From: an uncultured Spirochaetota bacterium
GTDB lineage: Bacteria > Spirochaetota > Spirochaetia > SZUA-6 > Fen-1364
NCBI GenBank assembly: GCA_963781885.1
Contig: CAWAHW010000006.1
Location: 1-64,000, forward strand
Direction: 5' to 3'
Length of the DNA stretch: 64,000 bases
This document shows, piece after piece, positions 10,900 to 46,559 of this stretch. The notes beneath the pieces were generated by a model, which searched no databases, was not told where the DNA came from, and worked only from the letters and a program-made list of their open reading frames with translations. Both the position numbers and the translations under genes were made by a program. Position 1 is the stretch's first letter, and the number at the start of each line of letters is the position of its first letter.

Positions 10900-11469
10900 G
10901 TGAGACTTGATAACCCACCGCCTATGGCGGTGGTGATGTCCTGATGGCTATGCCGTAAGACGGAATGCGAATAAAATCGAAACATGACGAAATGAAAAAA
11001 ACAATCGCACGTGGTCTACCAGTGCAGCTATCACATAGTATGGTGCCCCAAGTATAGATTTCGAATACTTGAAGGTGCTGTAGCGAAGTACGTCGAAGGA
11101 CGTATCAGGGCGATCTGCGAATGGAAGGATAGTGGAATAGAGGAACTGAATGTGATGAAAGATCATGTGCATCTGGTGGTAAACGTTCCTCCAAGGGTAT
11201 CGATATCAGAACTGATGGGGATTTTGAAGGGCAAGACAGCAATAGGAATATTTCAAAACTACAAGAGCTTGAAGCGGAAACCATACTGGGGAAATCATTT
11301 CTGGAGCCGCGGCTATTGCGTAACGACGATAGGGCTGGATGAAGAGAAGATACGTCGCTACGTACGATACCAGGAAGAAAACGAGCGGCTCGAAGAGAAA
11401 GAGCACGAAGAAGCAGGCCTCTTTTAGAGGCCGGGGTTCAAAACCACCTCCTCTGGAGGTCGATGCTTT
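10900..11469 (+). mobile_element. IS200/IS605-family element (tnpA only); ends approximate
   Basis: Subterminal hairpins CCACCGCC-TAT-GGCGGTGG (~10915-10933) and ACCTCC-TCT-GGAGGT (~11446-11460) flank tnpA. It is inserted upstream of the OsmC gene. Confidence 0.85.
11011..11427 (+). CDS. tnpA: Y1 HUH transposase
   Basis: YHIVWCPKYR, DHVHL (HUH), FWSRGY and YVRYQ motifs. Confidence 0.93.
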   Translation: MVYQCSYHIVWCPKYRFRILEGAVAKYVEGRIRAICEWKDSGIEELNVMKDHVHLVVNVPPRVSISELMGILKGKTAIGIFQNYKSLKRKPYWGNHFWSRGYCVTTIGLDEEKIRRYVRYQEENERLEEKEHEEAGLF

Positions 11470-15082: not shown

Positions 15083-15373
15083 CTATGCTCCTAGCGCCTG
15101 AGCTACAGCATCCGGGTTAATAGAAGCCACCCTCAATAGGGCTTGTGCTGGGCCTTCCGGTTTGCGTCGTCCCTGTTCCCAGTTCTGAAGTGTGGCAATG
15201 CTTACCCCAATCATTAAGGCGAACTCACTTTGAGACTTATGTAGTTTCTCACGGATTGCCCGTACGTCTGCGGAGTTGAATACCGTTACCCTTGAAGGCT
15301 TAACTTTGCCGCGCTTGATTTTCCCAGCCTGCTTGATGCTCTGTGCAAGCTCCTTGAAATCCATGGTGTTCAT
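15083..15373 (-). CDS. Xre/HTH antitoxin (HigA-like)
   Basis: SQSEFALMIGVSIATLQNWEQGRR HTH; overlaps the toxin stop codon. Confidence 0.88.
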   Translation of the reverse strand: MNTMDFKELAQSIKQAGKIKRGKVKPSRVTVFNSADVRAIREKLHKSQSEFALMIGVSIATLQNWEQGRRKPEGPAQALLRVASINPDAVAQALGA

Positions 15374-15687
15374 TTGAACTCCCTTTCTACCAACTGCCTC
15401 AGGATCTTGGTCTGCTGGGCAGTGAGGTCTTCTTGTTCATTTTTCGGATACAGATATAGCATGTAAATAGCGTCTGACGGTCTGTCCCAATAGTAGATAA
15501 GTCGGTACCCACCACGTTTGCCGTGTCCCTTGCCGGCCCATCTCAGTTTGCGGAGACCACCCGTTCCAGGAATAAGTGCCCCTTGTTCGGGACGTAGCAC
15601 CAGTGCTGTTTGGAGCAGCCGATACTCATCATCAATCAGTTTTTGGTTGACGATCTTTGTAAATGTCGGCGTCTCCATGAACTTCAT
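15370..15687 (-). CDS. RelE/HigB-family toxin
   Basis: IPGTGGLRKLRW..GKRGGYRLIYY motif. Confidence 0.9.
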   Translation of the reverse strand: MKFMETPTFTKIVNQKLIDDEYRLLQTALVLRPEQGALIPGTGGLRKLRWAGKGHGKRGGYRLIYYWDRPSDAIYMLYLYPKNEQEDLTAQQTKILRQLVEREFK

Positions 15688-18514: not shown

Positions 18515-20034
18515 CCCTAACGTTGCATAAAAAGATCGCTATGCAGAGGCATCCAGGGCTGCCAGATATGTTTGGAACTCTTTACGTGTGATTTCGTTGC
18601 CGCTCAGGGTAAGTCGTAGCCGCCCCTGCGGTCTGGTCAGTCGACCTGCCCTGTGGAGAAGCACCTGACGAATGGTCGTTGCCTCGCGGAAGCTCCATAA
18701 AGGTGACCGTTTCGCTGTCGTGGTCCGATCCTTTGTGCAGCTTTTGATATGAAGCTCACGAAAAAGATTATGCGCGATCACTGCCGAAAGAAAGTACCAC
18801 TGGTTGCCGGCCAGGCGACGCACGGGGACATAATCCATCTGGCACTGGTCCTTCAATTCTGAGAACATGTTCTCCTGCGACGCCCTCCCGTTGTGAAACA
18901 AGAGGATTCCCTTCGCCTTACCTCGCTTGTTGGTGACGATCACCTTGAACTCGTAGCCTTCTTCGTGAGGAACAAAGAGCTCCAACTGGACAGGTTCCTT
19001 TCGTTGCTTTTTCACCTTGTGGCGGAGGAACAGAAACCGATAGTGTTTGCTCCAGCAGTTCGGCGACCAGGGCAACTCGAAGTACGACCACTCGGAATCC
19101 AGGCGCTGCCACGTGCTCCTGGATTCAATGATCTCCTTCAACTCGGAGAATCGCTCGAAGGGAACGGAGATGCTAAACTCGACTTTCTGGGAGTCCAGAA
19201 AACTCACTGTTTCATCGCTGAAAAACGCTGAATCCTTACGCGACTCCACAATCACACCGGGCAGCTGAGCTCGCACCGCGGCCACGCACGCCCCAATGAA
19301 AGCAAGTGAGCCCTTGGAGTCGTGCACGTTGCCTGGCCGATGATGGGCATCCAGGACTTGACCGCTTTGCGCGACGGTGCAGAACAACGGGTAGTAGCTT
19401 CTGGCCCCCTTCTTTTTATCATTATACCCGATGGCCGTCCCCTCGGCGTAACGGCCGCTGGAGATCACCGAGCCATCGAAGTCCAAGGTGACCCGTGCCA
19501 GCCCCTGATGTTCAAGACGTTGCAGGACCAAAGCACGATTGAACTCTTGAAGGTTGGCAACGCTGTGCGCATCAGCCCGACAGAGCATCCGACTCACCGT
19601 ACAGACATGAGGCAGCCGCCGCAATCCCAGTGCTCGTCGAATCAGCGGGTCCTCTCGGTAGCGATCAATATCACGCAGCCGACGGTAGCCCAGCATCAAG
19701 TGCAGGATCATCAACAAGGCGACGCTGTGAAACCCTACCACGGAACCCTTCTTCCGATGGGTGAAGCATCGCTGTAGTTTGCCCGCGACATCCATGTTTT
19801 TGAAAAGGGCTTGTAGTACCACGGTCCCAGAAAAAGATGTCAAGCGTTGATCTTCGAAGCGAAGCTCGGGGAACTTGTAGACGCGGGAGTGGATTTGTGC
19901 TCTACTGGGTTTCACGTTTGGTGGCCTCCTGGTCGGTAGATCTGACTCTTGGCGGAATCAGGATTTGCCATATCAGGACGCCACTTTTTCATCTACACGT
20001 CAAGCGAATATCTGCCTTTTATGCATCTGTAAGG
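18515..20034 (-). mobile_element. IS1380-family element
   Basis: Inverted repeats CCCTAACGTTGCATAAAA / CCTTACAGATGCATAAAA; TTAA target duplication at 18511-14 and 20035-38. Confidence 0.88.
18539..19915 (-). CDS. IS1380-family DDE transposase
   Basis: LTSFSG, TLDFDGS, GYN..KKG..SYYPL, RPGNVHD, DSAF and HNGRASQEN motifs. Confidence 0.9.
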   Translation of the reverse strand: MKPSRAQIHSRVYKFPELRFEDQRLTSFSGTVVLQALFKNMDVAGKLQRCFTHRKKGSVVGFHSVALLMILHLMLGYRRLRDIDRYREDPLIRRALGLRRLPHVCTVSRMLCRADAHSVANLQEFNRALVLQRLEHQGLARVTLDFDGSVISSGRYAEGTAIGYNDKKKGARSYYPLFCTVAQSGQVLDAHHRPGNVHDSKGSLAFIGACVAAVRAQLPGVIVESRKDSAFFSDETVSFLDSQKVEFSISVPFERFSELKEIIESRSTWQRLDSEWSYFELPWSPNCWSKHYRFLFLRHKVKKQRKEPVQLELFVPHEEGYEFKVIVTNKRGKAKGILLFHNGRASQENMFSELKDQCQMDYVPVRRLAGNQWYFLSAVIAHNLFRELHIKSCTKDRTTTAKRSPLWSFREATTIRQVLLHRAGRLTRPQGRLRLTLSGNEITRKEFQTYLAALDASA

Positions 20035-20442: not shown

Positions 20443-20769
20443 ATGAAGCGAATGTTCATTGAGACAAATGAATTCCGAAAGCGTTGGGCCAAGTTGGGAC
20501 TTAGCGAGGAGGATCTGCGCGAGCTCGAAGGTTTCTTGCTCGAACATCCTGATGCCGGTGATATGGTGCAAGGCACTGGTGGTGTTCGTAAGGTTCGTTG
20601 GGCCCGCCCCGGTCGTGGGAGATCAGGAGGGGTGCGAACCATTTACATGGACTTTGCAAACAGAGAGACGACATGGTTGATCACGGTCTTTGGAAAGAAC
20701 GAGAAAATGGATCTATCAGCCGAAGAGCGAGGAGAGATAAGGCTCTTCGTGAAACGAATCAAGGGGTGA
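20443..20769 (+). CDS. RelE/HigB-family toxin
   Basis: GTGGVRKVRW..GRSGGVRTIY motif. Confidence 0.9.
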   Translation: MKRMFIETNEFRKRWAKLGLSEEDLRELEGFLLEHPDAGDMVQGTGGVRKVRWARPGRGRSGGVRTIYMDFANRETTWLITVFGKNEKMDLSAEERGEIRLFVKRIKG

Positions 20770-20773
20770 GGTT

Positions 20774-21091
20774 ATGTCAAAAGCATATGAGAGCATCGCG
20801 AGAGGTCTTGCAGAAATCGAGGCCCACGCGAAGGGAAAGATCAAGCTGCAGACCACAGTCCTCATGGTAACACCAACGCCTCAGTACGATGCAAAGGCGG
20901 TGAAGAGGATTCGACAAAGTCTGAAGCTTCCTCAACGTGCATTTGCTAAGTTATGCGGCGTCTCGGACAAGACAGTAGAGGCCTGGGAATCAGGACGAAA
21001 CGTACCCAATGGAAGTGCACGAAGGCTGTTTGAGTTGATCGAGAAAGACCAAGGAATCCTTACGCGTGAAGGTGTGCTTGTGACGTTGTGA
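20774..21091 (+). CDS. Xre/HTH antitoxin
   Basis: QRAFAKLCGVSDKTVEAWESGR helix-turn-helix. Confidence 0.88.
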   Translation: MSKAYESIARGLAEIEAHAKGKIKLQTTVLMVTPTPQYDAKAVKRIRQSLKLPQRAFAKLCGVSDKTVEAWESGRNVPNGSARRLFELIEKDQGILTREGVLVTL

Positions 21092-21340: not shown

Positions 21341-21952
21341 CTATGCGTCAATGCCAACAATAATTAGTGGTACGGCGGGTACACCGCGCCCTTGCCTTAT
21401 AACATTGTAGAATTCACCCTCGAAGTACGGCACACCAGAACTCATGTGCTTTTGGAGGCTCTTCATTGGTAGAATTTCGACTCCAACATCGATGTGATCT
21501 CCGACGTAGAAAGCCAAATGCTTTACAAAGAGATCATATGCGACAAAAGCATATTTTCCAAACTGTACCTCAATTGCTACGCGTTCCTTTACGAAATCGG
21601 TTTGGTTGTAGCTGAATATAGGTTGCTCGCCGGTGTCCTCAATCTCTTTCTTTTGCTCCTCAGGAGGCATTGTAAGCGTTTTTCTAATCAGTTTTTCATT
21701 TTTTGTGACCCAATAGCTAACGCGACTTTCCTGCCACGCAACTTTGCGCAGAAGCCGCTTGAATTCAAGGTTCATCTGGATTGGGCTGTACAGCAATTTT
21801 CCCTTCATGCCCTTCTCTTTGGAAACCTTGGTTTTGCACTTTTCAGCATCGACATTCCGTATGACACTTTCAATCTCTTTCCATAATTGCGGTTTGTGAA
21901 CAAGAAGAAACTCGAGTCCGTTCAAATGAGAGTATTGCTGTGCGATTTTCAT
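21341..21952 (-). CDS. BglII/BstYI-family type II restriction endonuclease
   Basis: QTDFVKERVAIEVQFGKY (D..ExQ motif); translationally coupled to a DNA methyltransferase. Confidence 0.85.
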   Translation of the reverse strand: MKIAQQYSHLNGLEFLLVHKPQLWKEIESVIRNVDAEKCKTKVSKEKGMKGKLLYSPIQMNLEFKRLLRKVAWQESRVSYWVTKNEKLIRKTLTMPPEEQKKEIEDTGEQPIFSYNQTDFVKERVAIEVQFGKYAFVAYDLFVKHLAFYVGDHIDVGVEILPMKSLQKHMSSGVPYFEGEFYNVIRQGRGVPAVPLIIVGIDA

Positions 21953-22974
21953 TTGGACGCCAGCCCTTTTTCCTCATCTTGATTCGGGAACAAACGGCTG
22001 CTCTGGGAGTCCTTCCACGGAGGAATTGTAAGGCTATTGCCCGCTTTGTAGGGATCATATACGGGCCTATCCATTGGCCTAGTCCGGAGTGTGCCATCCA
22101 TAGCCATATGAATTCGGCGCTTCGCTAAAGAGACGTACTTTGGAACGATTTCTGCTCCGACGCCACGCCGATTGTGCAATATGGCCGCTATGATAGAGGT
22201 TCCAGTTCCTAGGAATGGGTCAAAAACCCAATCATTTTCATTCGTGAGAGACAACACCAGTCTTTCAATCAATTCAACTGGGAATTGGCAAGGATGATCT
22301 GTCTTTTCTATGTGGTTACTTTTAACATTGGGGATTATCCAAAGATCGCTTGGATTTTTCCCGAGCGGATTGCTGGAATATTGGCCGGCTTTCGGGCCTT
22401 TAAAGTGCTTTTTGCCTGGATATTTTTGCGGAACACGAACAGAGTCCAAATTGAAAGTGTATTCTTCGGTCTTTGTAAACCAAACAATGGTTTCGTATCT
22501 GCCTGAGAAGCGCTTAGTACAATGCAGGCCATGTTCAAAGTGCCAAATGATGCGATTCCGCATCTTCAGCCCAAGCTTGGTGAATACGGGATAGAGTATC
22601 GTATCAAGTGGGATTATGGAACTTCCCGCAACATAGTTCCCTACCTGCCAACACAGGCTGCCAGTTGGGGATAAGGCTCGATAGCATTCGGTAATTACCT
22701 TTTCTTGTTGGGCAAGATAGGTTTCTAGATCAAGTCTTTTTTCATATTCCTTTCCAATATTGTAGGGAGGTGAGGTGACAACCAGCTTGAGTGATTCACT
22801 GGGGATACCAGCCAGTAGTTCAAGACAGTCACCAAGGTGTACGACTACGCGTTCATTCTTGGCGAATTTGTCCGCGATCTTTTGGTGCTTAGCGAACATA
22901 TCCTGATAGTAGTACACGTCCGAATCAGGGTCAACTGACATGGAATGCTCCCAAATATGCCTGTTTTGGGGCAT
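21949..22974 (-). CDS. N4/N6 site-specific DNA methyltransferase (beta class)
   Basis: TSPPY precedes HPCQFP and DPFLGTGT. Confidence 0.92.
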   Translation of the reverse strand: MPQNRHIWEHSMSVDPDSDVYYYQDMFAKHQKIADKFAKNERVVVHLGDCLELLAGIPSESLKLVVTSPPYNIGKEYEKRLDLETYLAQQEKVITECYRALSPTGSLCWQVGNYVAGSSIIPLDTILYPVFTKLGLKMRNRIIWHFEHGLHCTKRFSGRYETIVWFTKTEEYTFNLDSVRVPQKYPGKKHFKGPKAGQYSSNPLGKNPSDLWIIPNVKSNHIEKTDHPCQFPVELIERLVLSLTNENDWVFDPFLGTGTSIIAAILHNRRGVGAEIVPKYVSLAKRRIHMAMDGTLRTRPMDRPVYDPYKAGNSLTIPPWKDSQSSRLFPNQDEEKGLASK

Positions 22975-23089: not shown

Positions 23090-24409
23090 TGTCCTAACTA
23101 ACACATCGTTGACACTTTTCGCAGCACATCCTAACAGTTATCTCGCTGCCCTAACCAAGCGGCCGAGCTCATCCTGGATGCGCAGCTGCCGCTCGTCAAG
23201 ATAGCCTAACAGGGTGTCGCGGTAATACACGCGCCACTTGCCCTTCACGATCTGCTCCAGTCCGACGTACTTCTCGATCAGCGTTGTGCTGACGACGACC
23301 CACTTGCTGGAGCCCCAGCGGATTGCCCCGTTGCGGCAAACGTATTTCGTGCACATGCCTTCTGGATACTTCCAGGTCCTAGTTATGCGTGGAAGGCGGC
23401 GAGGGGAGTGGCGGTAGAACTCCTTGGGCCTCCTCTGTCCCAGCGTCTGATGAGGACGCTGCACGTTGTAGAAATGACGAAAGGCGTCGAACTTGTGTTG
23501 CTGCTGGACCAGGCTGTAGGCGGCCGGCTTTGTGGCCTCAGCCTTTAGCTCTTCGTGCATCCGCTCGTGACTACCGTTCTGCTCGGGGTGAGCCGGGTCA
23601 GAATAGACCGGCTGGATCCCCAGATCCATGAGCCAGACGGCAAGCCGCGTAAGCCGCGAGAGGCTCACCCCACTGGCGAAGGGCTCTCCGTTGTCACTGT
23701 GGATATCGTTTGGGCAAACCGTACTTCTTGAAAAGGGCCTCAAATACGGCCTTTGTGCCCTCATATGTGGGATTATGCATTCCCACCACCGCCAGCACAA
23801 AGCGGCTGTAGGCGTCCATGACGGTCAGCGGGTAGCAGTAGCGCCCGTCGCCCATGCGGAACTTCCCTTTGAAGTCCACGCTCCAGATCTCGTTGGGGGC
23901 CTTCGCCTCAAAGATCGGGTGCATCTCTCGAATGCGACGAACGCGGCGCCGCTTCTTGACTAGGCCATAGCGTTTGAGCACCAAGGCGATCGTCGCCACC
24001 GAAGGCACCTTCCGCCGACCACCATACCTCTCCGTGAGCAGCTGAAAGATCTTCAGCGGACCCATGCGAGGCCACCTGCCTCGTATTCGTACGATTGCCC
24101 GCTCGATGCTCGGTGCAGTGCGGTTCCACACCCGCCGCGGAGCCCGCGATTGCTCCTTGAGTCCCGCTACACCCCGCAACAGATAGCGCAGTATGTAGCG
24201 GTAACCTAAAGTACGGGAGATACCATAAGATTTGCACAGAGCAGTGAACGTGTGCTGGCCTGACTCCCACTCAAGAACGAAACTAGCCTTTTCGTCCATC
24301 GCTGACCGTTCCCTCCAGGGCATCCCGCTCTCCTCTCGGAGAAAACGTCGCCCAAAAAAGTGTCAACGATGTGCTTAGAATTCTGTCAACGATGTGCTTA
24401 GACAGGACC
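23090..24409 (-). mobile_element. IS481-family element A, copy with frameshifted transposase (~23705)
   Basis: Same as the other copies plus a net 1-bp insertion that splits the ORF into 23138-23800 and 23694-24323. Confidence 0.93.
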
Positions 24410-24536
24410 AAAACGCCTAACATAGAGTTGACCAGCGCCGCCGCATCAACCGGCACCACCCCGACGATTAGGACAAAGTTGGGTCTATCCAGATAAATTC
24501 CAAGGCGACTGGTCCAACGATTTGTTAGACGCATTC

Positions 24537-25619
24537 TCAATCCATATCAAATACGATATGTCCATTGCCAGGAGGTAGGACCCCCTTGGAGTACTTGTAG
24601 TGAGGCGGATACTCCTCCACTAGATCGAAGCGCTCCCCTGTGGGGATGTCAGCGTCTGTATCAAGCCAGTCAAGATAGGCGGCAGTCCAGTCAAAGAGGC
24701 GCTGAAACCAGGAGAGAATCCCTTCAAGGGACCACGCAGGAGGCGTCCTTCTCTTCCCAATGCGGAGAAGACTCAATCCGCCGAAGGTGAGGGTCAATCG
24801 AAATGCAGCTCCCTGCATGGTGCAATCCTTGTGGCCAGCGAACCGTCGGTCCCACGACGTGTAGGGGGCAGGGCTTCCGACCCCGCCAAAGGGTTCGATC
24901 CTGAACGACACGCCGTTGCCTGACAACTTTAGCATGGCTTGGTTCTTGTCGGTGAAGGCCAGCCTCATAGAGATCCCCTTCGGCAGATTGAACTGCAAAG
25001 ACGGGAAGTGCCGGCGAAGGAGTGCTGTGTCGAGAATCGAAGGCGCTATATCCTCGATCCCGTGTTTGGCGTGGTCAAGCGGGTGCCCCATTTTGCTGGA
25101 AATGAAAGGCCCGCGCTGAATGCTTGCAAGTACAGGTGCGAAGTCATCCATGGGGCCGAGCTTCTGGGATAGGGCGAGGAGGAGCGTGAAGATTGGCTCG
25201 AGGAACATGCTGTCAAAAGGCTGCTTTAGTTCCAAACCTATGAGCTGTCGGTGAACCTGATATATCATAATTGGAAACGGTCGCGGCTCTCCAATGAGAC
25301 GAGGGTGCATGCGCAAAACAAGAGGAACGGCGATCTTGTTTGTCGCGTGATTGATCACAACGGCGGTTGGAACCACCTTACTGACAGTCCGCGACGCTAA
25401 CTCGGCGGCTACCATCCGGATGAAGACGATGATTGCCACTGTCGCGGACAGACCTGCGATGGCCCAAACTAGGGGAGTGTTGGGCTGGGCAAGTGCAATC
25501 AGCGCGGACGCGAGGAGCCCTATGCAGCAGCCCAAGGCAAGGACACTAAATAGGAGGTTGGTGACGCGCGAGACGCTGGAGAAAGCCTGTTTTACCGGAT
25601 CGTCGCTTGCCATGTGCAA
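24537..25619 (-). CDS. Hypothetical protein with 2 N-terminal TM helices
   Basis: 360 aa ORF filling the cassette. Confidence 0.75.
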   Translation of the reverse strand: MHMASDDPVKQAFSSVSRVTNLLFSVLALGCCIGLLASALIALAQPNTPLVWAIAGLSATVAIIVFIRMVAAELASRTVSKVVPTAVVINHATNKIAVPLVLRMHPRLIGEPRPFPIMIYQVHRQLIGLELKQPFDSMFLEPIFTLLLALSQKLGPMDDFAPVLASIQRGPFISSKMGHPLDHAKHGIEDIAPSILDTALLRRHFPSLQFNLPKGISMRLAFTDKNQAMLKLSGNGVSFRIEPFGGVGSPAPYTSWDRRFAGHKDCTMQGAAFRLTLTFGGLSLLRIGKRRTPPAWSLEGILSWFQRLFDWTAAYLDWLDTDADIPTGERFDLVEEYPPHYKYSKGVLPPGNGHIVFDMD

Positions 25620-25793
25620 CTCTACCCGCCAACGAAAGAAAACACAATCTTGAATGCGTCTAACATAGAGTTGAGCACCCGGCCCGCATCAGACAAAAAC
25701 CACAAAGATTTGCACCGGAAGCGGGTCTGATGGACCAAATTCAGCCTGGAGTGCTCCAACGATTTGTTAGCTGGTTCCAGGGACGGACAGCCC

Positions 25794-27110
25794 TCAGGAC
25801 GACTTCATCAGTTGTTCGATCGTTTGGCGAAGCTTGCTTTCCATTTCTTTCATGCCCCTTGGGGTGAACTCGTACACGATGCACCGCAAGGCCTTCAGGT
25901 CAAAAGGAACGTCATCCATGGTCTGACTGACAAGGATTACATCTTTGCCCAGTGCATGGGCGAGCCCAACTTCATAGAAGACATTTGCGTTGCGCCCTGT
26001 AAGATCAGCAATGATTACTCGGGCACGGTTTATCCTCTCCCAAATTTCAAACACCACTTGGCGAGTGCCAAACACGTCATCGGCGCGGAAACATGACAGT
26101 CCAACTGACGAGACTGTTGGCTTGATATGATCAACGTACACAGCTTTCAGGTTCTCTGCAAACGGCATTAGGACGAAGCATAAATTAGGATCAAGACTAA
26201 ATGAGGCACCGCCGAATACTTTCCCTATTGTCTCAAGACTTTGGTGCCCTTTGCTCCCTTCCTCAACTTTCTTGCCCGATGCTGTCTTGGATTGCGTAAC
26301 GTTTCCTGACTTGGGCTCGATAGGAGCAGCTTGTTGAGGAGACTGTTTTGCAGTTGTCTGAGCGGTTGCTGGTGTCTTGAATATTGAATCAAACAGATTA
26401 TCGCCTTTGCCAAACATCCCGAATAGGTCGGTGTAAGTACTTTGCTGGGCAGCCTCTAGAAGCTTCTGAAGCTCATCCGCTTTCTGTTTCATGCCGTCAC
26501 TATCGCCGGCTTCAAGCAGCAGTCCCAAGTCAGCCAGGGTCTGCTCTACCCGCCGGTCACTCTCATTCATTGAATCTGATTCTTGCCGGGTTCTAAGATA
26601 CTTCTCTGCTTGATAGATCATCTCATTTGCGTGTGTATCATTTTCAATTTTACGAACTTCAACTACGTCGGCTTCCGAATCGTTTTTGGCCTGCTTTAAG
26701 AGTTCTTCGATCTTCTCATTTGTCAGGGTCTCGCTAGCGTTCGTTGTTTCCACCGTCATCTGTTGTTTTGAAAGCTTCTCAACTGCTGTAACCTTAACTG
26801 AAAAGTCGCGATCGATGTCAAAAGAAACAGAAATCTGTGGCTTTCCTTTCTCCATAGGCTCTATTCCGCGAAGGTCTGCTCTTGCCAGCTCCATGTTCTT
26901 ATTGGCAAGCTGGCTTTCGCCCACAAGTATGCGAATAGTTACGATTTCTTGATTGTCAGAAGCTGTTGAAAACGTGCAGGCCCTCTTGGTCGGAAGGGGT
27001 GTCCCACGCATTGCCAGCGGAGTTGAAATGCCACCTAACGTCTCAATTCCCACCGTTAGCGGTAGAAATTTGTACTCTTTAGATTCTTTGGGCATGCTTT
27101 CGCCTTTCAT
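25794..27110 (-). CDS. Hsp70 (DnaK) substrate-binding/lid domain fused to a TIR-like/nucleoside 2-deoxyribosyltransferase-like domain
   Basis: N-terminal PLTVGIETLGG..TFSTASDNQ..GKPQISVSFDID; C-terminal CFVLMPF..RADD..IADLTGRNANVFYEVGLAHALGK. Confidence 0.85.
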   Translation of the reverse strand: MKGESMPKESKEYKFLPLTVGIETLGGISTPLAMRGTPLPTKRACTFSTASDNQEIVTIRILVGESQLANKNMELARADLRGIEPMEKGKPQISVSFDIDRDFSVKVTAVEKLSKQQMTVETTNASETLTNEKIEELLKQAKNDSEADVVEVRKIENDTHANEMIYQAEKYLRTRQESDSMNESDRRVEQTLADLGLLLEAGDSDGMKQKADELQKLLEAAQQSTYTDLFGMFGKGDNLFDSIFKTPATAQTTAKQSPQQAAPIEPKSGNVTQSKTASGKKVEEGSKGHQSLETIGKVFGGASFSLDPNLCFVLMPFAENLKAVYVDHIKPTVSSVGLSCFRADDVFGTRQVVFEIWERINRARVIIADLTGRNANVFYEVGLAHALGKDVILVSQTMDDVPFDLKALRCIVYEFTPRGMKEMESKLRQTIEQLMKSS

Positions 27111-27257
27111 CGAGTCAATATACTACCATGTGGAGAGAATCTTAGAACCAGCTAACATAGAGTTCAGTACCCGGCCCGCATCAGAACCAAGGCACACCGA
27201 TTTGCCACGACGCCGGGTCTTTCCTACGAAATCACGCCGGAGTACTGCAACGATTTG

Positions 27258-27942
27258 TTAGGCATTTTCCTCTTGTATGGTTGCTACTATTCTTTCGAGA
27301 AATGGCTTCATGCGTCTATAACCCATTCTTGAGTCTGCTATTTCTACTTCTATCTGCTTCTGAGTTTCCGTTTCAATATGCGCAAGGTTTCTAAGCATAT
27401 ATGTAATTTTGATGTCCTCGGAATAGGCCACGTCCACAAATCCTATTCGAACCGCACAGTCGACTTTGTCCCGAAAAGCAATGCTGTTTCGTTCTGTCTT
27501 CTCATCCCGGGTAAACGCATGGGAAAACGTCTTCTTCGCCATACTTCATGGCCGTAAGATGAGCAAACGCACCGACCGGCTTATATGCTTTGTGCGTTTG
27601 GAGCAGCTTTACCTCGGGATGTGCCTTATAGCGGTTCCATAGAAGATGGGATATCACGGCTTCATATATTGATGCGTATTGGATGATTTGGAACTTCACA
27701 AACGCATGCAATTCGTCTCCCGTTGCAGACAGAGCCTCCATCAACTTTGCGATATACCGCGCCGAGTAGTAGGCTCGTCCCAGTCGTTTGCGGAGCTCTA
27801 CTTCCTCAATAAAGCCAAACTGGTCGACATGCCAGTCAAGGTTCCCAGGCAGGTGTTTGGTGCAGTACTCAAGCAACATCACTCTTGTCTCTTCATCGGT
27901 TGGCATTTGGAACCCTCTTTCGTAGTATCCAGCAGAAATCAA
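27258..27942 (-). CDS. Hypothetical, HEPN-like protein (frameshift ~27520)
   Basis: Two overlapping ORFs in one cassette; YASIYEA and LRNLAH motifs. Confidence 0.55.
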
Positions 27943-28171
27943 ACCGTTTCCTAACTACGCCAGCGTCATCAATCGGCGGCTAACGCAGCGAAGACATTTT
28001 GAAAACGCCTAACATAGAGTTCAGTACCCGGCCCGCATCAGACGGCACCACCCCGATTTGCGCCGGCAGCGGGTCTATCCAACAAGATTCTTAGTCCGGA
28101 GTACTGCAACGACTTGTTATGCGGACCCTCTTTCCCATAGTTCTTGGTTTCATTCTACGTGTTTGCCATAG

Positions 28172-28950: not shown

Positions 28951-29292
28951 CTAAAGGGCAAACATTTCCTGGAGAACATCCAAAGTCTTTTCCAAAATGG
29001 CATTTGGCAGACGACCTAAGGGTCTTATTAGGCGAATTCTATCTACGGTTCTAATCTGATCGAGCACAATATGCCCGGACTTCCCTTTAAATCGGCATTC
29101 AACACGGAATGGGTAAGAATAGCTGCCTGTCGTCATGGGCGCTATAATAAAAGTGCGCAGATACTGATTCAATTCATCTGGAGACACTACGACGCATGGT
29201 CTGGTTTTTTTGATTTCTTGGCCCTTTGTGGGGTCCAAACTCACGAGCACAATGTCGCCACGCTTGATCTCCGTTGATTCTACCATTGCCAT
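28951..29292 (-). CDS. mazF: PemK/MazF-family toxin
   Basis: LDPTKGQEIKKTRPCVVVS and DQIRTVD motifs. Confidence 0.92.
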   Translation of the reverse strand: MAMVESTEIKRGDIVLVSLDPTKGQEIKKTRPCVVVSPDELNQYLRTFIIAPMTTGSYSYPFRVECRFKGKSGHIVLDQIRTVDRIRLIRPLGRLPNAILEKTLDVLQEMFAL

Positions 29293-29686: not shown

Positions 29687-31005
29687 TGTCCTAACTAACA
29701 CATCGTTGACACTTTTCGCAGCACATCCTAACAGTTATCTCGCTGCCCTAACCAAGCGGCCGAGCTCATCCTGGATGCGCAGCTGCCGCTCGTCAAGATA
29801 GCCTAACAGGGTGTCGCGGTAATACACGCGCCACTTGCCCTTCACGATCTGCTCCAGTCCGACGTACTTCTCGATCAGCGTTGTGCTGACGACGACCCAC
29901 TTGCTGGAGCCCCAGCGGATTGCCCCGTTGCGGCAAACGTATTTCGTGCACATGCCTTCTGGATACTTCCAGGTCCTAGTTATGCGTGGAAGGCGGCGAG
30001 GGGAGTGGCGGTAGAACTCCTTGGGCCTCCTCTGTCCCAGCGTCTGATGAGGACGCTGCACGTTGTAGAAATGACGAAAGGCGTCGAACTTGTGTTGCTG
30101 CTGGACCAGGCTGTAGGCGGCCGGCTTTGTGGCCTCAGCCTTTAGCTCTTCGTGCATCCGCTCGTGACTACCGTTCTGCTCGGGGTGAGCCGGGTCAGAA
30201 TAGACCGGCTGGATCCCCAGATCCATGAGCCAGACGGCAAGCCGCGTAAGCCGCGAGAGGCTCACCCCACTGGCGAAGGGCTCTCCGTTGTCACTGTGGA
30301 TCTGTTTGGGCAAACCGTACTTCTTGAAAAGGGCCTCAAATACGGCCTTTGTGCCCTCATATGTGGGATTATGCATTCCCACCACCGCCAGCACAAAGCG
30401 GCTGTAGGCGTCCATGACGGTCAGCGGGTAGCAGTAGCGCCCGTCGCCCATGCGGAACTTCCCTTTGAAGTCCACGCTCCAGATCTCGTTGGGGGCCTTC
30501 GCCTCAAAGATCGGGTGCATCTCTCGAATGCGACGAACGCGGCGCCGCTTCTTGACTAGGCCATAGCGTTTGAGCACCAAGGCGATCGTCGCCACCGAAG
30601 GCACCTTCCGCCGACCACCATACCTCTCCGTGAGCAGCTGAAAGATCTTCAGCGGACCCATGCGAGGCCACCTGCCTCGTATTCGTACGATTGCCCGCTC
30701 GATGCTCGGTGCAGTGCGGTTCCACACCCGCCGCGGAGCCCGCGATTGCTCCTTGAGTCCCGCTACACCCCGCAACAGATAGCGCAGTATGTAGCGGTAA
30801 CCTAAAGTACGGGAGATACCATAAGATTTGCACAGAGCAGTGAACGTGTGCTGGCCTGACTCCCACTCAAGAACGAAACTAGCCTTTTCGTCCATCGCTG
30901 ACCGTTCCCTCCAGGGCATCCCGCTCTCCTCTCGGAGAAAACGTCGCCCAAAAAAGTGTCAACGATGTGCTTAGAATTCTGTCAACGATGTGCTTAGACA
31001 GGACC
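29687..31005 (-). mobile_element. IS481-family element A (1319 bp)
   Basis: Ends TGTCCTAACTAACACATCGTTGACA / GGTCCTGTCTAAGCACATCGTTGACA; tandem TGTCAACGATGTGCTTAGA at the transposase 5' end. Confidence 0.93.
29735..30919 (-). CDS. IS481-family DDE transposase
   Basis: MPW start, HTH, WSVDFKG, HSDNG and QNGSHER motifs. Confidence 0.93.
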   Translation of the reverse strand: MPWRERSAMDEKASFVLEWESGQHTFTALCKSYGISRTLGYRYILRYLLRGVAGLKEQSRAPRRVWNRTAPSIERAIVRIRGRWPRMGPLKIFQLLTERYGGRRKVPSVATIALVLKRYGLVKKRRRVRRIREMHPIFEAKAPNEIWSVDFKGKFRMGDGRYCYPLTVMDAYSRFVLAVVGMHNPTYEGTKAVFEALFKKYGLPKQIHSDNGEPFASGVSLSRLTRLAVWLMDLGIQPVYSDPAHPEQNGSHERMHEELKAEATKPAAYSLVQQQHKFDAFRHFYNVQRPHQTLGQRRPKEFYRHSPRRLPRITRTWKYPEGMCTKYVCRNGAIRWGSSKWVVVSTTLIEKYVGLEQIVKGKWRVYYRDTLLGYLDERQLRIQDELGRLVRAAR

Positions 31006-34261: not shown

Positions 34262-35580
34262 TGTCCTAACTAACACATCGTTGACACTTTTCGCAGCACA
34301 TCCTAACAGTTATCTCGCTGCCCTAACCAAGCGGCCGAGCTCATCCTGGATGCGCAGCTGCCGCTCGTCAAGATAGCCTAACAGGGTGTCGCGGTAATAC
34401 ACGCGCCACTTGCCCTTCACGATCTGCTCCAGTCCGACGTACTTCTCGATCAGCGTTGTGCTGACGACGACCCACTTGCTGGAGCCCCAGCGGATTGCCC
34501 CGTTGCGGCAAACGTATTTCGTGCACATGCCTTCTGGATACTTCCAGGTCCTAGTTATGCGTGGAAGGCGGCGAGGGGAGTGGCGGTAGAACTCCTTGGG
34601 CCTCCTCTGTCCCAGCGTCTGATGAGGACGCTGCACGTTGTAGAAATGACGAAAGGCGTCGAACTTGTGTTGCTGCTGGACCAGGCTGTAGGCGGCCGGC
34701 TTTGTGGCCTCAGCCTTTAGCTCTTCGTGCATCCGCTCGTGACTACCGTTCTGCTCGGGGTGAGCCGGGTCAGAATAGACCGGCTGGATCCCCAGATCCA
34801 TGAGCCAGACGGCAAGCCGCGTAAGCCGCGAGAGGCTCACCCCACTGGCGAAGGGCTCTCCGTTGTCACTGTGGATCTGTTTGGGCAAACCGTACTTCTT
34901 GAAAAGGGCCTCAAATACGGCCTTTGTGCCCTCATATGTGGGATTATGCATTCCCACCACCGCCAGCACAAAGCGGCTGTAGGCGTCCATGACGGTCAGC
35001 GGGTAGCAGTAGCGCCCGTCGCCCATGCGGAACTTCCCTTTGAAGTCCACGCTCCAGATCTCGTTGGGGGCCTTCGCCTCAAAGATCGGGTGCATCTCTC
35101 GAATGCGACGAACGCGGCGCCGCTTCTTGACTAGGCCATAGCGTTTGAGCACCAAGGCGATCGTCGCCACCGAAGGCACCTTCCGCCGACCACCATACCT
35201 CTCCGTGAGCAGCTGAAAGATCTTCAGCGGACCCATGCGAGGCCACCTGCCTCGTATTCGTATGATTGCCCGCTCGATGCTCGGTGCAGTGCGGTTCCAC
35301 ACCCGCCGCGGAGCCCGCGATTGCTCCTTGAGTCCCGCTACACCCCGCAACAGATAGCGCAGTATGTAGCGGTAACCTAAAGTACGGGAGATACCATAAG
35401 ATTTGCACAGAGCAGTGAACGTGTGCTGGCCTGACTCCCACTCAAGAACGAAACTAGCCTTTTCGTCCATCGCTGACCGTTCCCTCCAGGGCATCCCGCT
35501 CTCCTCTCGGAGAAAACGTCGCCCAAAAAAGTGTCAACGATGTGCTTAGAATTCTGTCAACGATGTGCTTAGACAGGACC
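34262..35580 (-). mobile_element. IS481-family element A with intact transposase 34310-35494
   Basis: CCAA target duplication; the empty site is visible in the paralogous cassette at ~57948-57962. Confidence 0.95.
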
Positions 35581-36875: not shown

Positions 36876-37292
36876 TCATCCGTTAGTTCGTTCTGTGTTC
36901 TTCATTATTTCCCAAAACTGTCTTGGCTGTATGATCGGAATGCCTTTGTGCTTCTTGAGTACTAGCAAGTCCTCATCCCCAGTAATGATGTAATCTGCCA
37001 ACGCTTGTTCAGCAAGGGCAATGATATGGTCATCATTTTGATCCCTTGAAATGCGTTTGCCTAGCGGTTTGACATGAAAAACAGTTGAATGCTCTTTTAG
37101 GTATTCAAGGGTGTCTTGGATAGTTTGAGGTGGAACTTTTAGCTTCCGTTTCAACGCGTCAGCTATCTCGTTAAGTATTTCCGAACTCAGGTATAGATCT
37201 TGCTGGTCCAGGCACATCTCAAATACAGCATGACATAGTCCCTGCGTGGCGAATGCTGCAACTATCACGTTTGTGTCTAGCACAACTTTCAT
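36876..37292 (-). CDS. PIN-domain toxin
   Basis: VVLDTNV, DDHII and ITGDEDLL motifs. Confidence 0.92.
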   Translation of the reverse strand: MKVVLDTNVIVAAFATQGLCHAVFEMCLDQQDLYLSSEILNEIADALKRKLKVPPQTIQDTLEYLKEHSTVFHVKPLGKRISRDQNDDHIIALAEQALADYIITGDEDLLVLKKHKGIPIIQPRQFWEIMKNTERTNG

Positions 37293-43014: not shown

Positions 43015-43325
43015 TTGACCCGGTAGGTCCCCGTTTGCCTTTCACGACATCCTGAATACACTTGCCGAACGGCATATTACGCAAATTTCAGCCAACCTAA
43101 CATAGAGTTGACCAGCGCCGCCGCATCATCCAGCCCTACATTGACGATTAGGAAGACGTTGGGTCTATCCAGACAAATTCCTAGGCGACTGGTCCAACGA
43201 TTTGTTATACCCATCTTTGACCCAGATGCAACATCGCTATCCGGGGTTCAATGATACCCTAGGTACCGAGGAGAAAGACAGAGCCGACGCTTGACGGGTA
43301 CATACCATGCGTGGTATATTCCAGC

Positions 43326-43679
43326 ATGGCCTACAAAGTCAGACTCCTGCGGCCGGCGGCGGAATTCTTGGACGGTTTGCCTGACCGTCTGAGGGCAAAG
43401 GCCGGCCGAGCGATTGTACTGCTGCGCGAGTTTGGACCTTCCCTTAGGGAGCCCCATTCGAAGAAGGTGTCAGATTGGCCTGGCCTATTTGAGCTGAGAG
43501 TGATACTTGGTCGTGATGCGTGTCGGTTCTTCTACTTTTGGCACAAACAGCAGCTTTACGTCGTGACCTCAGGCTATCTTAAGAAAGGCATGAAATTGGA
43601 GCGAAAGGAGCTTGAAAAGGCTTCGGCGCTCATGAAGCGGTACATGGAGAGTACGGGAGGAAGCGATGAAGGCAATTGA
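43326..43679 (+). CDS. RelE/ParE-like (Gp49) toxin
   Basis: GPSLREPHSK..LFELR; TTGACG-18-TATATT lies 5 nt upstream. Confidence 0.85.
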   Translation: MAYKVRLLRPAAEFLDGLPDRLRAKAGRAIVLLREFGPSLREPHSKKVSDWPGLFELRVILGRDACRFFYFWHKQQLYVVTSGYLKKGMKLERKELEKASALMKRYMESTGGSDEGN

Positions 43680-44025
43680 TTTCGACAGATATCTTGAGAC
43701 TCAGATGAAAAATCCTGAGTTTAGGAAGGCCTACGAAGAGCTGGAAGACAAGTACGAGCTTGCGAAGCAGATCATCCGTTTCCGAATAGATCGCAACCTT
43801 ACCCAGGCACAACTGGCCCGTTTGGTAGGAACTTCTCAGCCGGCCATCGCGCGGTTGGAGTCCGGCAATCATAGGAATCTGACGCTGGCATTCCTCTTCA
43901 GGATTGCCAAGGCCCTTGATTTACGAGCCGAGTTGAAGTTCCTTCCGCTTAAGCCCCCGCCGCTGGCCCGTACGCGGGGAGGGCGCAAAAGCTTACGATC
44001 GTCGGCTGCCGCGAGAGCAATGTGA
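43666..44025 (+). CDS. Xre/HTH antitoxin
   Basis: LTQAQLARLVGTSQPAIARLESG helix-turn-helix. Confidence 0.88.
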   Translation: MKAIDFDRYLETQMKNPEFRKAYEELEDKYELAKQIIRFRIDRNLTQAQLARLVGTSQPAIARLESGNHRNLTLAFLFRIAKALDLRAELKFLPLKPPPLARTRGGRKSLRSSAAARAM

Positions 44026-44184: not shown

Positions 44185-44586
44185 CTATTCCCTTTTCCTT
44201 CTTTTGGAGCCAAGGTTTCTGAGGATATCTGAGATTTCGGTTTTGGTAGCTTTGCCTTGTGCCACTTTCATCATCATAGAATATAGAGATTCATTTGGAT
44301 CCTCTATCTGAATCCCATTCAAGTCTAGGAATACCAAAGCCGTCGCTAAGGCAGTCCGCTTGTTTCCATCTATGAAAGGATGGTTTTGGCAAATGTGGAA
44401 CGCGTAAGCCGCCGCTTGATCGTAGCGATCCGCATGCAGCAGCTTTCCTTCGAAGGTCGTAATTGGCATTGCCAGGGCGGAGCTAAGCAATGCGGCATCT
44501 CGCAGGCCGTAGCGACCCCCATACTGTTGAATTTGATCTTGAAGGATCAATAGTACCTCGGTCATGGTCAAGAAGCGGGGATTCAA
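44185..44586 (-). CDS. doc: Doc/Fic-family toxin
   Basis: HPFIDGNKRTA motif. Confidence 0.92.
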   Translation of the reverse strand: MNPRFLTMTEVLLILQDQIQQYGGRYGLRDAALLSSALAMPITTFEGKLLHADRYDQAAAYAFHICQNHPFIDGNKRTALATALVFLDLNGIQIEDPNESLYSMMMKVAQGKATKTEISDILRNLGSKRRKRE

Positions 44587-45497: not shown

Positions 45498-46559
45498 TCA
45501 CCAAAATGGAACACAGTGGCAACCAAGACAGCCACGCGATAGTGGAAACAATCTGAGGTCCCCGTTAGTGAAAGTACAGTAGTGGAAGTCAGAAATCGAC
45601 TTGTAGATAGGCGCAAGGTGTTCAATCAAATCTTTCCCTGTCGAGCTCACAACGTCCACGGAGTGAATTGCCCTTAGGTCTTGGTGCCAGTGTGTCCCAT
45701 GATGCGGCGATACTAGGATCAAGAAGTTGGTCCGATCCCTTTTGTTTAATTCCTGAACCACTTGCTGTATCTCCTTGGAATCAAGATCACCTAAAAAGAG
45801 CAATCTATTGTCCTCATGAAACGCCAGGCTAATGTGGTTGGCGGCTCTTTGCAGTGAGTCATTTGCCTTCGTCACTGCAGGACGCAGCTCTTTTCGACCC
45901 TTCGCAGACCACTTCTGGATGGTGCCAACAGGTTCGTACTCTTTGAACCCGTCCGCTTCCTCAAGCGAAGCGGACACATACCCGTCTAGGTCAAGGCGAT
46001 CGTGGATTTCAGCAAGCTCTGGGTCAGCACGTTTCGCATCGCCGAAATCGGCGATAGCGTGTTCTACGGCAGCTACGAAGTCAGCGTCTTGGTATTCGCT
46101 TGGCGGCCACAGAACCTCAAGCTTAACTCCTTCCACCATGACACTTTCGCCGGCGGAGAGTGCTCGGTACTTTGGTTTCCTGCCTGTGACCTGAAAGAGT
46201 AGTTCCAGAAGTTCCGCCTCCCTACTTCCAGTCATCTGTCCCATCAGAAAGCAGTTCATAGCAAATAGACAGCTCAAATACTCACGTCTTTGGGGAAAAC
46301 TGGGAACCCGAGGGAAACACACGACGCGAAGGCCATCCCATTCGTGGTTACTCGTTCGCAACGCGTACAGCAAGCCGTTATAGTGGTCGTAGTGAAAGTG
46401 CGAAAGCACGAACGCCTCTGGGTTCACTTCCCTCGGGCCTCGGTTGAACGCTGTCTCCGGCCTGTCCGCGCCGCAGTCGATTTGGATGTGGCTATGTTGA
46501 ACAGTAAGAATCCTCGCTGAAAGCCCACTGCCAACGTCGGGAACACTTAGCGCTATCAC
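45498..46559 (-). CDS. MBL-fold metallo-hydrolase (ComEC/Rec2-like)
   Basis: IDCG, SHFHYDH, FLGD and PHHG motifs. Confidence 0.85.
   Translation of the reverse strand: MIALSVPDVGSGLSARILTVQHSHIQIDCGADRPETAFNRGPREVNPEAFVLSHFHYDHYNGLLYALRTSNHEWDGLRVVCFPRVPSFPQRREYLSCLFAMNCFLMGQMTGSREAELLELLFQVTGRKPKYRALSAGESVMVEGVKLEVLWPPSEYQDADFVAAVEHAIADFGDAKRADPELAEIHDRLDLDGYVSASLEEADGFKEYEPVGTIQKWSAKGRKELRPAVTKANDSLQRAANHISLAFHEDNRLLFLGDLDSKEIQQVVQELNKRDRTNFLILVSPHHGTHWHQDLRAIHSVDVVSSTGKDLIEHLAPIYKSISDFHYCTFTNGDLRLFPLSRGCLGCHCVPFW

Follow-up and report, generated by a model that had tools for sequence, protein, structure and literature searches.

The stretch of DNA analysed here (hereafter the window) comprises the first 64,000 nucleotides of contig CAWAHW010000006.1 in assembly GCA_963781885.1, from an uncultured Spirochaetota bacterium. 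Its minus strand carries a gene whose product joins the substrate-binding half of an Hsp70 chaperone, through a disordered linker, to an enzyme-like domain of the TIR/nucleoside deoxyribosyltransferase (NDT) class (Table 1). I refer to it as the fusion gene, and to its C-terminal part as the C-domain. According to the open reading frame (ORF) calls and the translation, the frame is intact and has no internal stop. An alternative in-frame ATG is found at codon 6 (27095), and as the purine-rich stretch upstream of it is better than that of the first ATG, it may be the true start.

The fusion gene is a horizontally acquired integron cassette. The attC core AACTCTATGTTAG flanks it on the minus strand at 27152-27164 and 25660-25672, and from the attC positions and a reading of the sequence, the fusion gene is the only ORF between them. 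The window holds 62 matches to this core, all but one of them on the minus strand (61), whereas 100 shuffles gave a mean of 1.03, and the spacing between cores is mostly 350-2,500 bp. The whole window (1-64000) can be described as one co-oriented array with 61 minus-strand attC cores and cassettes of mostly 0.35-2.5 kb. Both flanking attC sites fold as long imperfect R''/R' hairpins in which TAACA is paired with TGTTA ends, with weak to modest z-scores (-1.84 and -1.69). An integron integrase (TIGR02249, 400.8 bits, cut-off 265) is encoded on the opposite strand at G000:C6:69485-70420, 5.5 kb past the end of the window, and by inference the array runs from this integrase through the window, with the fusion cassette about 42 kb from the integrase end. 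The attC boundaries, the hairpins, the co-oriented array and the nearby integrase all identify the gene as a member of an integron. A second integron integrase above the cut-off is located on another contig (G000:C5:114967-115890), together with fragments at C5:41356-46514. Between 25500 and 27400, neither sigma-70-like promoters (0 found, 2.0 expected in shuffles) nor intrinsic terminators (0 found, 2.1 expected) were detected.

Table 1. Features of the fusion gene and its cassette; the mean pairwise identity of each region was computed over 1,500 random pairs of homologues
Feature	Residues	Position	Strand	Mean pairwise identity	Basis and remarks
Fusion gene ORF (P0001)	1-438	25794..27110	(-)		438 aa, ATG start, stop codon included
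Integron gene cassette		25664..27155	(-)		1,492 bp, from the G|TT crossover in the upstream attC to the corresponding point in its own
attC of the fusion cassette		25660..25772	(-)		R'' TAACAAA at about 25763-25769; R' core 25660-25672
attC of the preceding cassette		27147..27262	(-)		bounds the 5' side of the fusion gene
Hsp70 SBD-beta sandwich	16-122	26745..27065	(-)	0.51	Pfam, eight predicted strands, alignment to E. coli DnaK 395-497
Alpha-helical lid	123-233	26412..26744	(-)	0.35	predicted helices, modelled closed over the beta domain
Disordered S/K/P/T/A-rich linker	234-293	26232..26411	(-)	0.18	pLDDT, pairwise identity
Junction motif	294-309			0.66	part of the C-domain
TIR/NDT (DrHyd)-class Rossmannoid domain	294-438	25797..26231	(-)	0.65	profile and fold matches; includes the junction motif
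Invariant motif N374-x-N376-V-F-Y-E380-x-G382-x-x-H385	374-385	25956..25991	(-)		E380 (25971-25973) is the candidate catalytic Glu

The fusion represents a conserved family, spread over several phyla yet rare. In a large protein collection, 5,063 of the 7,999 candidates scored matched at E<=0.001, most of them ordinary Hsp70s. However, among the 120 best matches listed, 117 of the 119 non-self proteins align over at least 97% of the query, with 39-49% identity and lengths of 391-492 amino acids (aa). The name given by the sources, where there is one, is 'Hsp70 family protein', and the origins include metagenome-assembled genomes (MAGs) of Syntrophorhabdaceae, Planctomycetota, Pyrinomonadaceae, Terriglobales and Symbiobacteriaceae. 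The alignment used below for conservation holds 117 of the 120, leaving out P0055 (492 aa), P0062 (65% coverage) and P0095 (86% coverage). Genomic copies with the full architecture were found in a Chthoniobacterales MAG and a Spirochaetia MAG, and a copy truncated by the contig end in a Chloroflexota MAG. That the fusion could be an assembly chimera, a condition under which the earlier note on this DNA would have been abandoned, is ruled out by the homologues that align end to end and by the copies in other genomes. These latter copies lie outside cassettes; downstream of one (L001) there are terminator-like hairpins, and downstream of another (L002) there is no structure (z +1.61) and there are no attC-like repeats.

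Within its own genome the fusion gene is single-copy. A full-length fusion was present in 0 of 40 relatives ranging from the same genus to the same order, in 0 of 300 other genomes of the phylum, and in 0 of 401 genomes of a second phylum, where part of the candidates was scored per genome; all three are samples, and the result reads as not found in those searched. Among 283 matching plasmid records none covers 80% or more of the query, the best listed being dnaK. A metagenome scan with the N-terminal alignment, the peptide pattern of which also fits DnaK, gave 0 of 80 loci with an ORF of at least 150 aa bearing NVFYE; 8 further scan loci are canonical dnaK, and only L091, where the gene is ended by the contig edge, belongs to the fusion family. 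In a literature search, with most subscription journals and supplements outside its coverage, no account was found of a protein that joins an Hsp70 substrate-binding domain to a domain of the TIR or NDT kind.

The Pfam HSP70 model spans residues 16-226 (E 6.4e-37) with positions 390-598 only of its 599, and the ATPase domain is therefore absent; the protein begins just 15 residues ahead of the substrate-binding domain (SBD), leaving no Hsp70 nucleotide-binding domain. The NCBIfam DnaK equivalog models align with their C-terminal part only and remain far below their cut-offs (156 and 150 bits vs. 648 and 822). DnaK scores higher than HscA (156 vs. 117 bits), both being matched in the C-terminal third alone. 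In the full-length AlphaFold2 model, made with the 117-sequence alignment (mean pLDDT 85.2, pTM 0.60), the N-terminal half has eight strands (20-121), after which come long helices (125-233). Foldseek matched this model to Hsp70 SBDs only, for which reason the C-domain was folded separately. The matches to DnaK SBDs have E values from 5.5e-21 to 1e-16, TM(target) of 0.81-0.86 and root mean square deviations (rmsd) of 2.4-3.0 A, with the closed, peptide-bound crystal forms ranked best and 29-35% identity among the top matches.

In a phmmer comparison with the PDB, the beta domain aligns with that of DnaK at a constant offset of 379 residues (n with n+379), so that I22, T24, L25, F47, A50, Q54, V57 and I59 correspond to DnaK 401, 403, 404, 426, 429, 433, 436 and 438. 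In DnaK, I take I401, F426, V436 and I438 to form the peptide pocket, and M404 and A429 the arch. Of these positions, F47 is conserved in 112, A50 in 111, Q54 in all and T24 in 115 of the 117 aligned members; V57 is kept in 111 and replaced by Ile in the remainder, and position 22 is always I, L, M or V. Both hallmarks of the Hsp70 client-binding half, the SBD-beta sandwich with its hydrophobic pocket and arch and the closing helical lid, are present. Because the pocket positions are kept across the family, the domain looks, judged from its sequence, competent to bind extended hydrophobic peptides. An isolated Hsp70 SBD is the high-affinity, slow-exchange form, and as there is no ATPase, the domain should act as a trap and not as a cycling chaperone. 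The hydrophobic inter-domain linker of DnaK is replaced by an aromatic F/Y-x-F/Y stub, with F, Y or W at position 13 in 114 and F or Y at position 15 in 99 of the 117 members.

The linker that follows is predicted to be disordered (pLDDT < 50 at residues 245-298) and varies among homologues from 33 to 76 aa, while being rich in S, K, P, T and A throughout. Two aromatic positions at its start are conserved, F240 in 110 and F244 in 108 of the 117. It ends at a junction motif, GK(I/V)FGGxxFxLD (residues 294-309, with G296, I/V298, F299, G300, G301, F304 and D307), which is specific to the fusion family; in a broader C-domain alignment conservation begins only at F312. The GK(I/V)FGG stretch was considered as a tethered pseudo-substrate for the peptide cleft and set aside, as AlphaFold2 shows no docking and residues 297-299 lie in the predicted dimer interface described below. 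Participation of these residues in that interface would be the simpler reading.

By sequence the C-domain is nearest to NDT and DNPH1 proteins, and by fold it is equally near to TIR domains. It contains CFVLMPF at residues 311-317 and NANVFYEVG at 374-382. Invariant in all 117 members are W357, E358, R364, N374, N376, V377, F378, Y379, E380, G382, K389, F403, D404, R409 and Y413, and H385 is kept in 116. When a profile of 65 sequences (the window copy and 64 translated genomic matches) was compared with the PDB, the best match was Rcl/DNPH1 (E 5e-5), followed by Cap12 (0.24), a trypanosomal NDT (0.33) and MilB (0.78). The F-Y-E-x-G of the C-domain aligns with G-Y-E-L-G of Rcl, placing E380 on the YELG glutamate of Rcl/DNPH1, which in Rcl is presumably the nucleophile. 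The Y-E-x-G glutamate after the central strand, characteristic of the NDT/DNPH1 superfamily, is thus found in the alignment and is invariant in 117 of 117. The nearest Atlas clusters of the C-domain bear the NDT family name (score 0.94). PADLOC model PDLC00733, 'Effector TIR', gives a partial match of residues 345-416 to positions 286-357 of its 388 (E 9.3e-10).

Folded by itself, the C-domain gave a confident model (pLDDT 89.2, pTM 0.85), for which Foldseek ranked NDTs best (1.9e-5), then the TIR domains of SPARTA, SfSTING, plants and SARM1, then MilB and DNPH1. With VIA-align, which is independent of Foldseek, the TIR domains of Hydra TRR-2 and SfSTING scored Z 14.4 (SfSTING with rmsd 2.0 A over 119 residues), MilB 13.9, NDTs 13.1, SARM1 12.6 and Rcl 11.8, and lower values were obtained for the CRISPR-associated Cat1 TIR (11.2), TIR-SAVED (10.6) and ThsB (10.5). 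The fold is at once the Rossmannoid alpha/beta fold of the NDT superfamily and TIR-like. Since the top rows (TIR, MilB, NDT) are tied within about one Z unit, I place the C-domain in what the Aravind group has described as the TIR-DrHyd-SLOG assemblage, a class that also includes pure sensors (PMC9503650).

A two-copy prediction of the C-domain reached an ipSAE of 0.71, against 0.02 for the best control; of the proteins whose solved structures are pairs of one chain, 20 of 30 attain this mark, as does 1 of 23 solved as single chains. Three runs agreed in at least 73% of contacts, with a partner pLDDT of at least 85. The predicted interface consists of residues 297-299, 352-356, 373-391 and 402-408, with the invariant motif inside. 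This supports an NDT-like two-fold homodimer having the motif at its interface, as far as a model can, and the pass may also reflect likeness to solved NDT-type dimers. Among the best 150 representatives of the C-domain family, 51 (including P0243-P0282) have two tandem copies of the domain, which may amount to a single-chain dimer; such copies fit a paired working unit independently of the dimer prediction.

The earlier note had described a single-gene integron cassette that encodes an Hsp70 SBD and lid devoid of the ATPase domain, a low-complexity linker, and a TIR/NDT-like domain with the two motifs given above. This anatomy stands in all its parts, and the glutamate of the domain is conserved.

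The C-domain belongs to a very large family: the number of cluster representatives that its profile matches is 37,450 at E<=1e-3, still 24,400 at E<=1e-10, and 3,878 at E<=1e-30. Among the best 150 representatives the proteins range from 128 to 1,349 aa, and the domain can be at either end or in the middle. A Pfam scan of 76 genomic ORFs found TIR_2 as a partner in four (L011, L016, L026, L048), DUF4062 in L020, cNMP_binding in L046, Clp_N in L006, REC with a sigma-54 AAA domain in L007, FGE-sulfatase in L063 and the Hsp70 substrate-binding domain in L002 and L003; most other extensions have no Pfam match. Clp_N is the N-domain of Clp/Hsp100 chaperones; as a partner here it comes without AAA+ modules (L006:299-1222, P0121-P0125, P0165, P0191), and Clp_N-NDT is a small family, with 6 of 120 listed matches at 99% coverage, one of which is named 'nucleoside 2-deoxyribosyltransferase' by its source. 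The Chloroflexota contain many other ATPase-less Clp_N proteins with different C-terminal modules, for example a phosphoribosyltransferase or a ClpX-type zinc finger.

The closest relative of the C-domain (54% identity, 221 aa) is encoded in an Anaerolineales MAG (L004:7767-10305), where the gene order is NDT-like, SAVED (PF18145, 4.2e-17), mCpol (PF18182, 3e-22), an ORF of no known family and a C39 peptidase. Operons of mCpol with SAVED or CARF partners are Panoptes-type anti-phage systems (PMC12657218), and the locus is a Panoptes-like nucleotide-signalling operon in which the NDT-like protein is a possible effector. At their N-termini, this protein and the SAVED protein have a weak helical similarity (38 residues, 29% identity, E 0.001 in a single comparison), which could be a common adaptor. 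More distant relatives (27-29% identity) are present in 47 records of temperate phages of Streptococcus, Staphylococcus, Lactobacillus and Enterococcus. In Streptococcus phage Javan508 (L254, 3459-4238) the gene is situated between the integrase and the Cro/CI regulators of the lysogeny module, and in Staphylococcus phage P630 (L255, 3492-4142) it is antisense within the replication module; the two genes bear hypothetical annotations, and the matching PHROGs families carry no functional assignment. A Bacteroidetes MAG (L079:205-3865) shows the order full-length dnaK, a 369-aa protein ending in this NDT-like domain, a J-domain protein of 150 aa whose tail is hydrophobic, and a MazF-like gene. 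A recurrent dnaK/J-domain neighbourhood of the family was rejected, as this is the only one among 159 C-domain loci; L079 was itself selected partly because its dnaK matched the query, and it serves as a lead only.

The rest of the array in the window is a mixture typical of sedentary integrons: many toxin-antitoxin pairs, methyltransferases, nitroreductases, NUDIX and GNAT genes, and several insertion sequences, with OsmC, nitroreductases, CMD and DinB as stress-type cassettes. For the genes in the cassettes adjoining the fusion gene (27165-28021 and 24417-25660, both on the minus strand), neither Pfam nor PADLOC gave a match; one cassette has an overlapping pair of 146 and 94 aa, which could be a two-gene module, and the other a 360-aa protein with a hydrophobic N-terminal stretch. 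At 21341-22974 (-), within a single 2.57-kb cassette, a BglII-type restriction endonuclease (PF09195, 8.4e-36; PADLOC REase_II, 3.7e-93) is accompanied by an N6/N4 DNA methylase (4.2e-54), which looks like a complete type II restriction-modification system as integron cargo. At 4811-7582 (-), within a 3.7-kb attC-to-attC interval, there are a PEGA-domain gene, an ORF of no assigned family and two caspase-like (Peptidase_C14) genes, one of which also matches the PADLOC 'caspase' model (4.8e-13).

Cassettes of the toxin-antitoxin type are located at 15083-15687, 20443-21091, 28951-29292, 36876-37292, 43311-44025, 44185-44586, 50346-50923, 51670-51975, 53821-54454 and 60926-61629. They comprise RelE with an MqsA-like helix-turn-helix (HTH) protein (two), MazF/PemK (two, one with MazE), PIN (two, one with FitA), Gp49/HigB-like with HTH (two), Fic/Doc and ParE. 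Insertion sequences are found at 29735-30919 and 34310-35494 (-), where two 394-aa rve-family transposase genes with the same Pfam scores are apparently identical, and further at 58797-60023, 23138-24323, 18539-19915 and 11011-11427; the other transposases are a third rve gene, a copy split over two overlapping frames, a DDE_Tnp_1_4 and an IS200-like Y1. Weak PADLOC matches were obtained for a 353-aa ORF at 45498-46559 (-) to LmuA (2.6e-6) and for a NUDIX protein at 47518-47991 (-) to the candidate system PDC-S07 (4.6e-12).

In comparison with known proteins, the N-terminal half of the fusion has the beta sandwich, helical lid and pocket and arch residues of the E. coli DnaK SBD (389-607; PDB 1DKX, 4R5J). 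It differs from DnaK in lacking the nucleotide-binding domain, and hence an ATP-driven client cycle, in having the aromatic stub for the hydrophobic linker, and in a C-terminus that continues into an enzyme-like domain. With DNPH1/Rcl, the NDTs and MilB (Pfam clan Nribosyltransf; 'DrHyd') the C-domain shares the Rossmannoid fold (Z 11.2-13.9), the Y-E-x-G glutamate and, by prediction, a symmetric dimer with the motif at its interface. In contrast to them, it stays under the Pfam gathering score, has invariant residues of its own (N374, N376, H385, K389, D404, R409, Y413) and is embedded in multi-domain, mobile proteins. The TIR NADase effectors (TIR-STING/Cap12, TIR-SAVED, SPARTA TIR-APAZ, SARM1) are as similar in fold as the NDTs are; the PADLOC TIR-effector match points to them as well, and like them the fusion joins a sensor to a domain of a nucleotide-cleaving class. 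However, the fusion has no Pfam TIR match, an NDT-like two-fold dimer is predicted for it instead of a head-to-tail TIR filament, and its putative sensor is a chaperone client-binding domain where those effectors have nucleotide or nucleic-acid sensors.

Three anti-phage systems come near in design. The NDT-like effector of retron Ec86 (Retron-Eco1) is proposed there to need a dimer for activity (bioRxiv 2023.08.16.553469). As in the fusion, an NDT-like domain would be the dimer-dependent effector, whereas the retron is a multi-gene system under reverse transcriptase/msDNA control and the fusion a single gene with a protein-binding domain. Swarozyc is described as a DUF4062 TIR-like NADase activated by assembly with the phage portal (bioRxiv 2026.05.01.722283). 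It is likewise TIR/NDT-related, and DUF4062 is itself fused to a member of the C-domain family in L020, but it represents another domain family with another sensor and no relation to Hsp70. In CmdTAC, a SecB-like chaperone is reported to sense newly made phage capsid protein (bioRxiv 2024.02.24.581662), so that among toxin-antitoxin-chaperone systems a chaperone-type client-binding module serves as a sensor there, as is proposed here for the fusion. CmdTAC, however, has three genes, a SecB-like chaperone, a logic of antitoxin degradation and an ADP-ribosyltransferase toxin, in contrast to the single polypeptide with an Hsp70-type and an NDT/TIR-class domain found here. Prokaryotic immunity is known to use sensors joined to domains that degrade nucleotides; a chaperone client-binding domain in the sensor position is new.

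By analogy with the assembly-dependent TIR/NDT-class effectors (SARM1, TIR-STING, SPARTA, TIR-SAVED), with retron Ec86 and with CmdTAC, I tentatively propose, as the likeliest of the readings though far from secure, that the protein is a self-contained sensor-effector in which captured client peptides switch on an NAD+/nucleotide N-glycosidase, with growth arrest or abortive infection as the outcome. It would be a homodimer carrying two substrate-binding arms on tethers of 33-76 residues. The arms, having no ATPase, would be high-affinity, slow-exchange traps for extended hydrophobic segments, which may be offered by unfolded or aggregating proteins or by newly made viral structural proteins. 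Multivalent clients might then cluster or rearrange the catalytic dimers and thereby turn on N-glycosidic cleavage of nucleotides, most likely of NAD+, with (deoxy)nucleoside monophosphates, (d)NMP, as the alternative. An effector role of the C-domain family receives indirect support from the fusions to TIR_2, DUF4062 and cNMP-binding domains, the SAVED-mCpol neighbour and the prophage lysogeny modules. It is possible, though I consider it doubtful, that the ATPase-less SBD is in more general terms a bacterial pattern-recognition receptor for exposed hydrophobic polypeptide that directly gates a dimeric NDT/TIR-class NAD+/nucleotide glycosidase, so that one protein would make up a whole system with a chaperone as its immune sensor. 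With similar reserve, its triggers may be nascent or unassembled viral structural proteins or misfolding induced by infection, and its spread may have been by integrons and other horizontal transfer. That Clp_N was joined independently to the same effector domain may point to a broader class, in which effectors are coupled to recognition domains of protein quality control.

A number of observations weigh against this sensor-effector proposal. As to the enzyme, sequence support for the C-domain is weak: Pfam Nuc_deoxyrib_tr (PF05014) scores 22.6 bits at residues 357-401, below its cut-off of 28.8 (E 1.2e-4), and the Pfam TIR models (PF13676, PF01582; STIR clan) do not match it at E<=1. As to the switch, a constitutive dimer, predicted as it is without a trigger, would leave client-driven switching unexplained, and AlphaFold2 shows no confident packing between the two domains (pTM 0.60, though each is individually confident). 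The SBD-beta is well conserved (mean pairwise identity 0.51) and has no diversification of the type often found in arms-race sensors, which is as compatible with a generic or host ligand as with a viral one. None of the 241 relatives of the C-domain on viral contigs carries an SBD. Finally, expression of the gene is doubtful in its present location, and may be low, because the cassette has no promoter-like site of its own and stands far out in the array.

The genomic contexts do not speak for defence either. The five known to me (the window, L001, L002, L003, L091) share no partner gene: a Mrr-like nuclease lies two genes downstream in L002, a FitA-PIN pair and a DUF488 gene are downstream in L003 and a MazF toxin in L001, and L091 is preceded only by metabolic genes (IF-2B/MtnA-like, PNP, amidohydrolase, thiolase, APH-like). 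PADLOC (E<=1e-5) matched 1 of 53 neighbouring ORFs at the four fusion loci outside the window. Around C-domain genes it matched 11 of 150 ORFs, vs. 15 of 148 around dnaK controls, i.e. no enrichment in a coarse test (the ten ORFs closest to the gene at the first 15 C-domain loci with full flanks and at 15 dnaK loci, with self-made ORF calls) that concerns the C-domain family and not the fusion itself, and in which many matches on both sides are generic, such as kinases, ATPases and MotB-like proteins. In PADLOC-DB 2.0 (2023; later systems fall outside it), the fusion protein has no full-length match, the partial effector match being the only one. The earlier note had read the protein as a candidate anti-phage sensor and counted missing enrichment in defence islands, together with missing phage protection, among the grounds for refuting this; the anatomy on which it built is sound, but no such enrichment was found in this coarse test.

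The generic and strongly conserved peptide pocket and the missing enrichment would also suit a proteotoxic-stress module that is independent of phages, in which the arms sense unfolded host proteins upon heat, oxidants or aminoglycoside-type stress. The fusion of the same C-domain to Clp_N, another quality-control recognition domain, and the stress-type cassettes of the same array (OsmC, nitroreductases, CMD, DinB) agree with it. However, such a patchy and mobile gene (0/40, 0/300, 0/401) is unusual for a general stress function, and relatives of the C-domain accompany TIR, DUF4062, SAVED-mCpol and prophage lysogeny modules. I regard this alternative as rather unlikely, and its second part, in which the NDT-like dimer degrades the nucleotide pool and brings about dormancy or metabolic remodelling, in the same way. 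It is unlikely, too, that the protein is neither toxin nor immune factor but a constitutive nucleotide-sanitising or salvage enzyme of the DNPH1, MilB or NDT type, with the SBD serving only for folding, localisation or regulation by host chaperones. Its best profile matches are indeed housekeeping N-glycosidases (Rcl/DNPH1 5e-5, NDT 0.33, MilB 0.78), the L091 homologue is downstream of nucleoside and methionine-salvage-type genes, and the dimer is predicted without any trigger. Against this, the invariant N374, N376, H385, K389, D404, R409 and Y413 do not make a simple copy of NDT or DNPH1, the Pfam NDT score is under the cut-off, the fusion partners of the C-domain are signalling and immune modules, and rarity and cassette location speak against a core metabolic role.

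Guard and decoy sensors are an established general logic, and in a strict DnaK decoy the SBD would mimic the client site of DnaK, capture phage proteins that need the host DnaK and so trigger the effector. The pocket residues are the same as those of DnaK at the aligned positions, and the NCBIfam score is higher for DnaK than for HscA (156 vs. 117 bits). Nevertheless, I hold it to be quite improbable, as the region of the DnaK inter-domain linker is changed to the F/Y-x-F/Y stub (114/117, 99/117), no phage partner is known and nothing separates a decoy from generic client sensing. The roles of the two halves could also be reversed, with the C-domain as a non-catalytic nucleotide sensor and the SBD as the output that sequesters or releases a host client on binding of a signal nucleotide. 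The pure sensors in the TIR-DrHyd-SLOG class (PMC9503650) and the C-domain fusions to cNMP-binding and REC domains allow for this, and the conserved pocket at the predicted dimer interface could equally be a ligand site. I find the reversal very improbable in view of the glutamate and motif, invariant in 117 of 117 and aligned with the YELG glutamate of Rcl/DNPH1, and of the L004 locus, where a dedicated SAVED sensor already adjoins the NDT-like gene, so that the NDT-like domain is the likelier effector there. A silent passenger cassette devoid of function, or an artefact of annotation or assembly, is scarcely credible: the gene is distal in its array and has no promoter-like site, but the ORF is intact, it aligns end to end with more than 100 homologues, both domains are conserved, and in other genomes the gene is carried outside cassettes. 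That the architecture is conserved as a whole largely refutes this possibility.

The fusion is a concrete candidate among the mostly unannotated cargo of sedentary chromosomal integrons. If the substrate-binding domain does gate the enzyme, as in the sensor-effector proposal, cells would have a new and direct means of reading 'foreign or unfolded protein', in a compact system of a single gene, and this would provide a functional handle on a very large domain family that lies below the NDT threshold (24,400 representatives at E<=1e-10).

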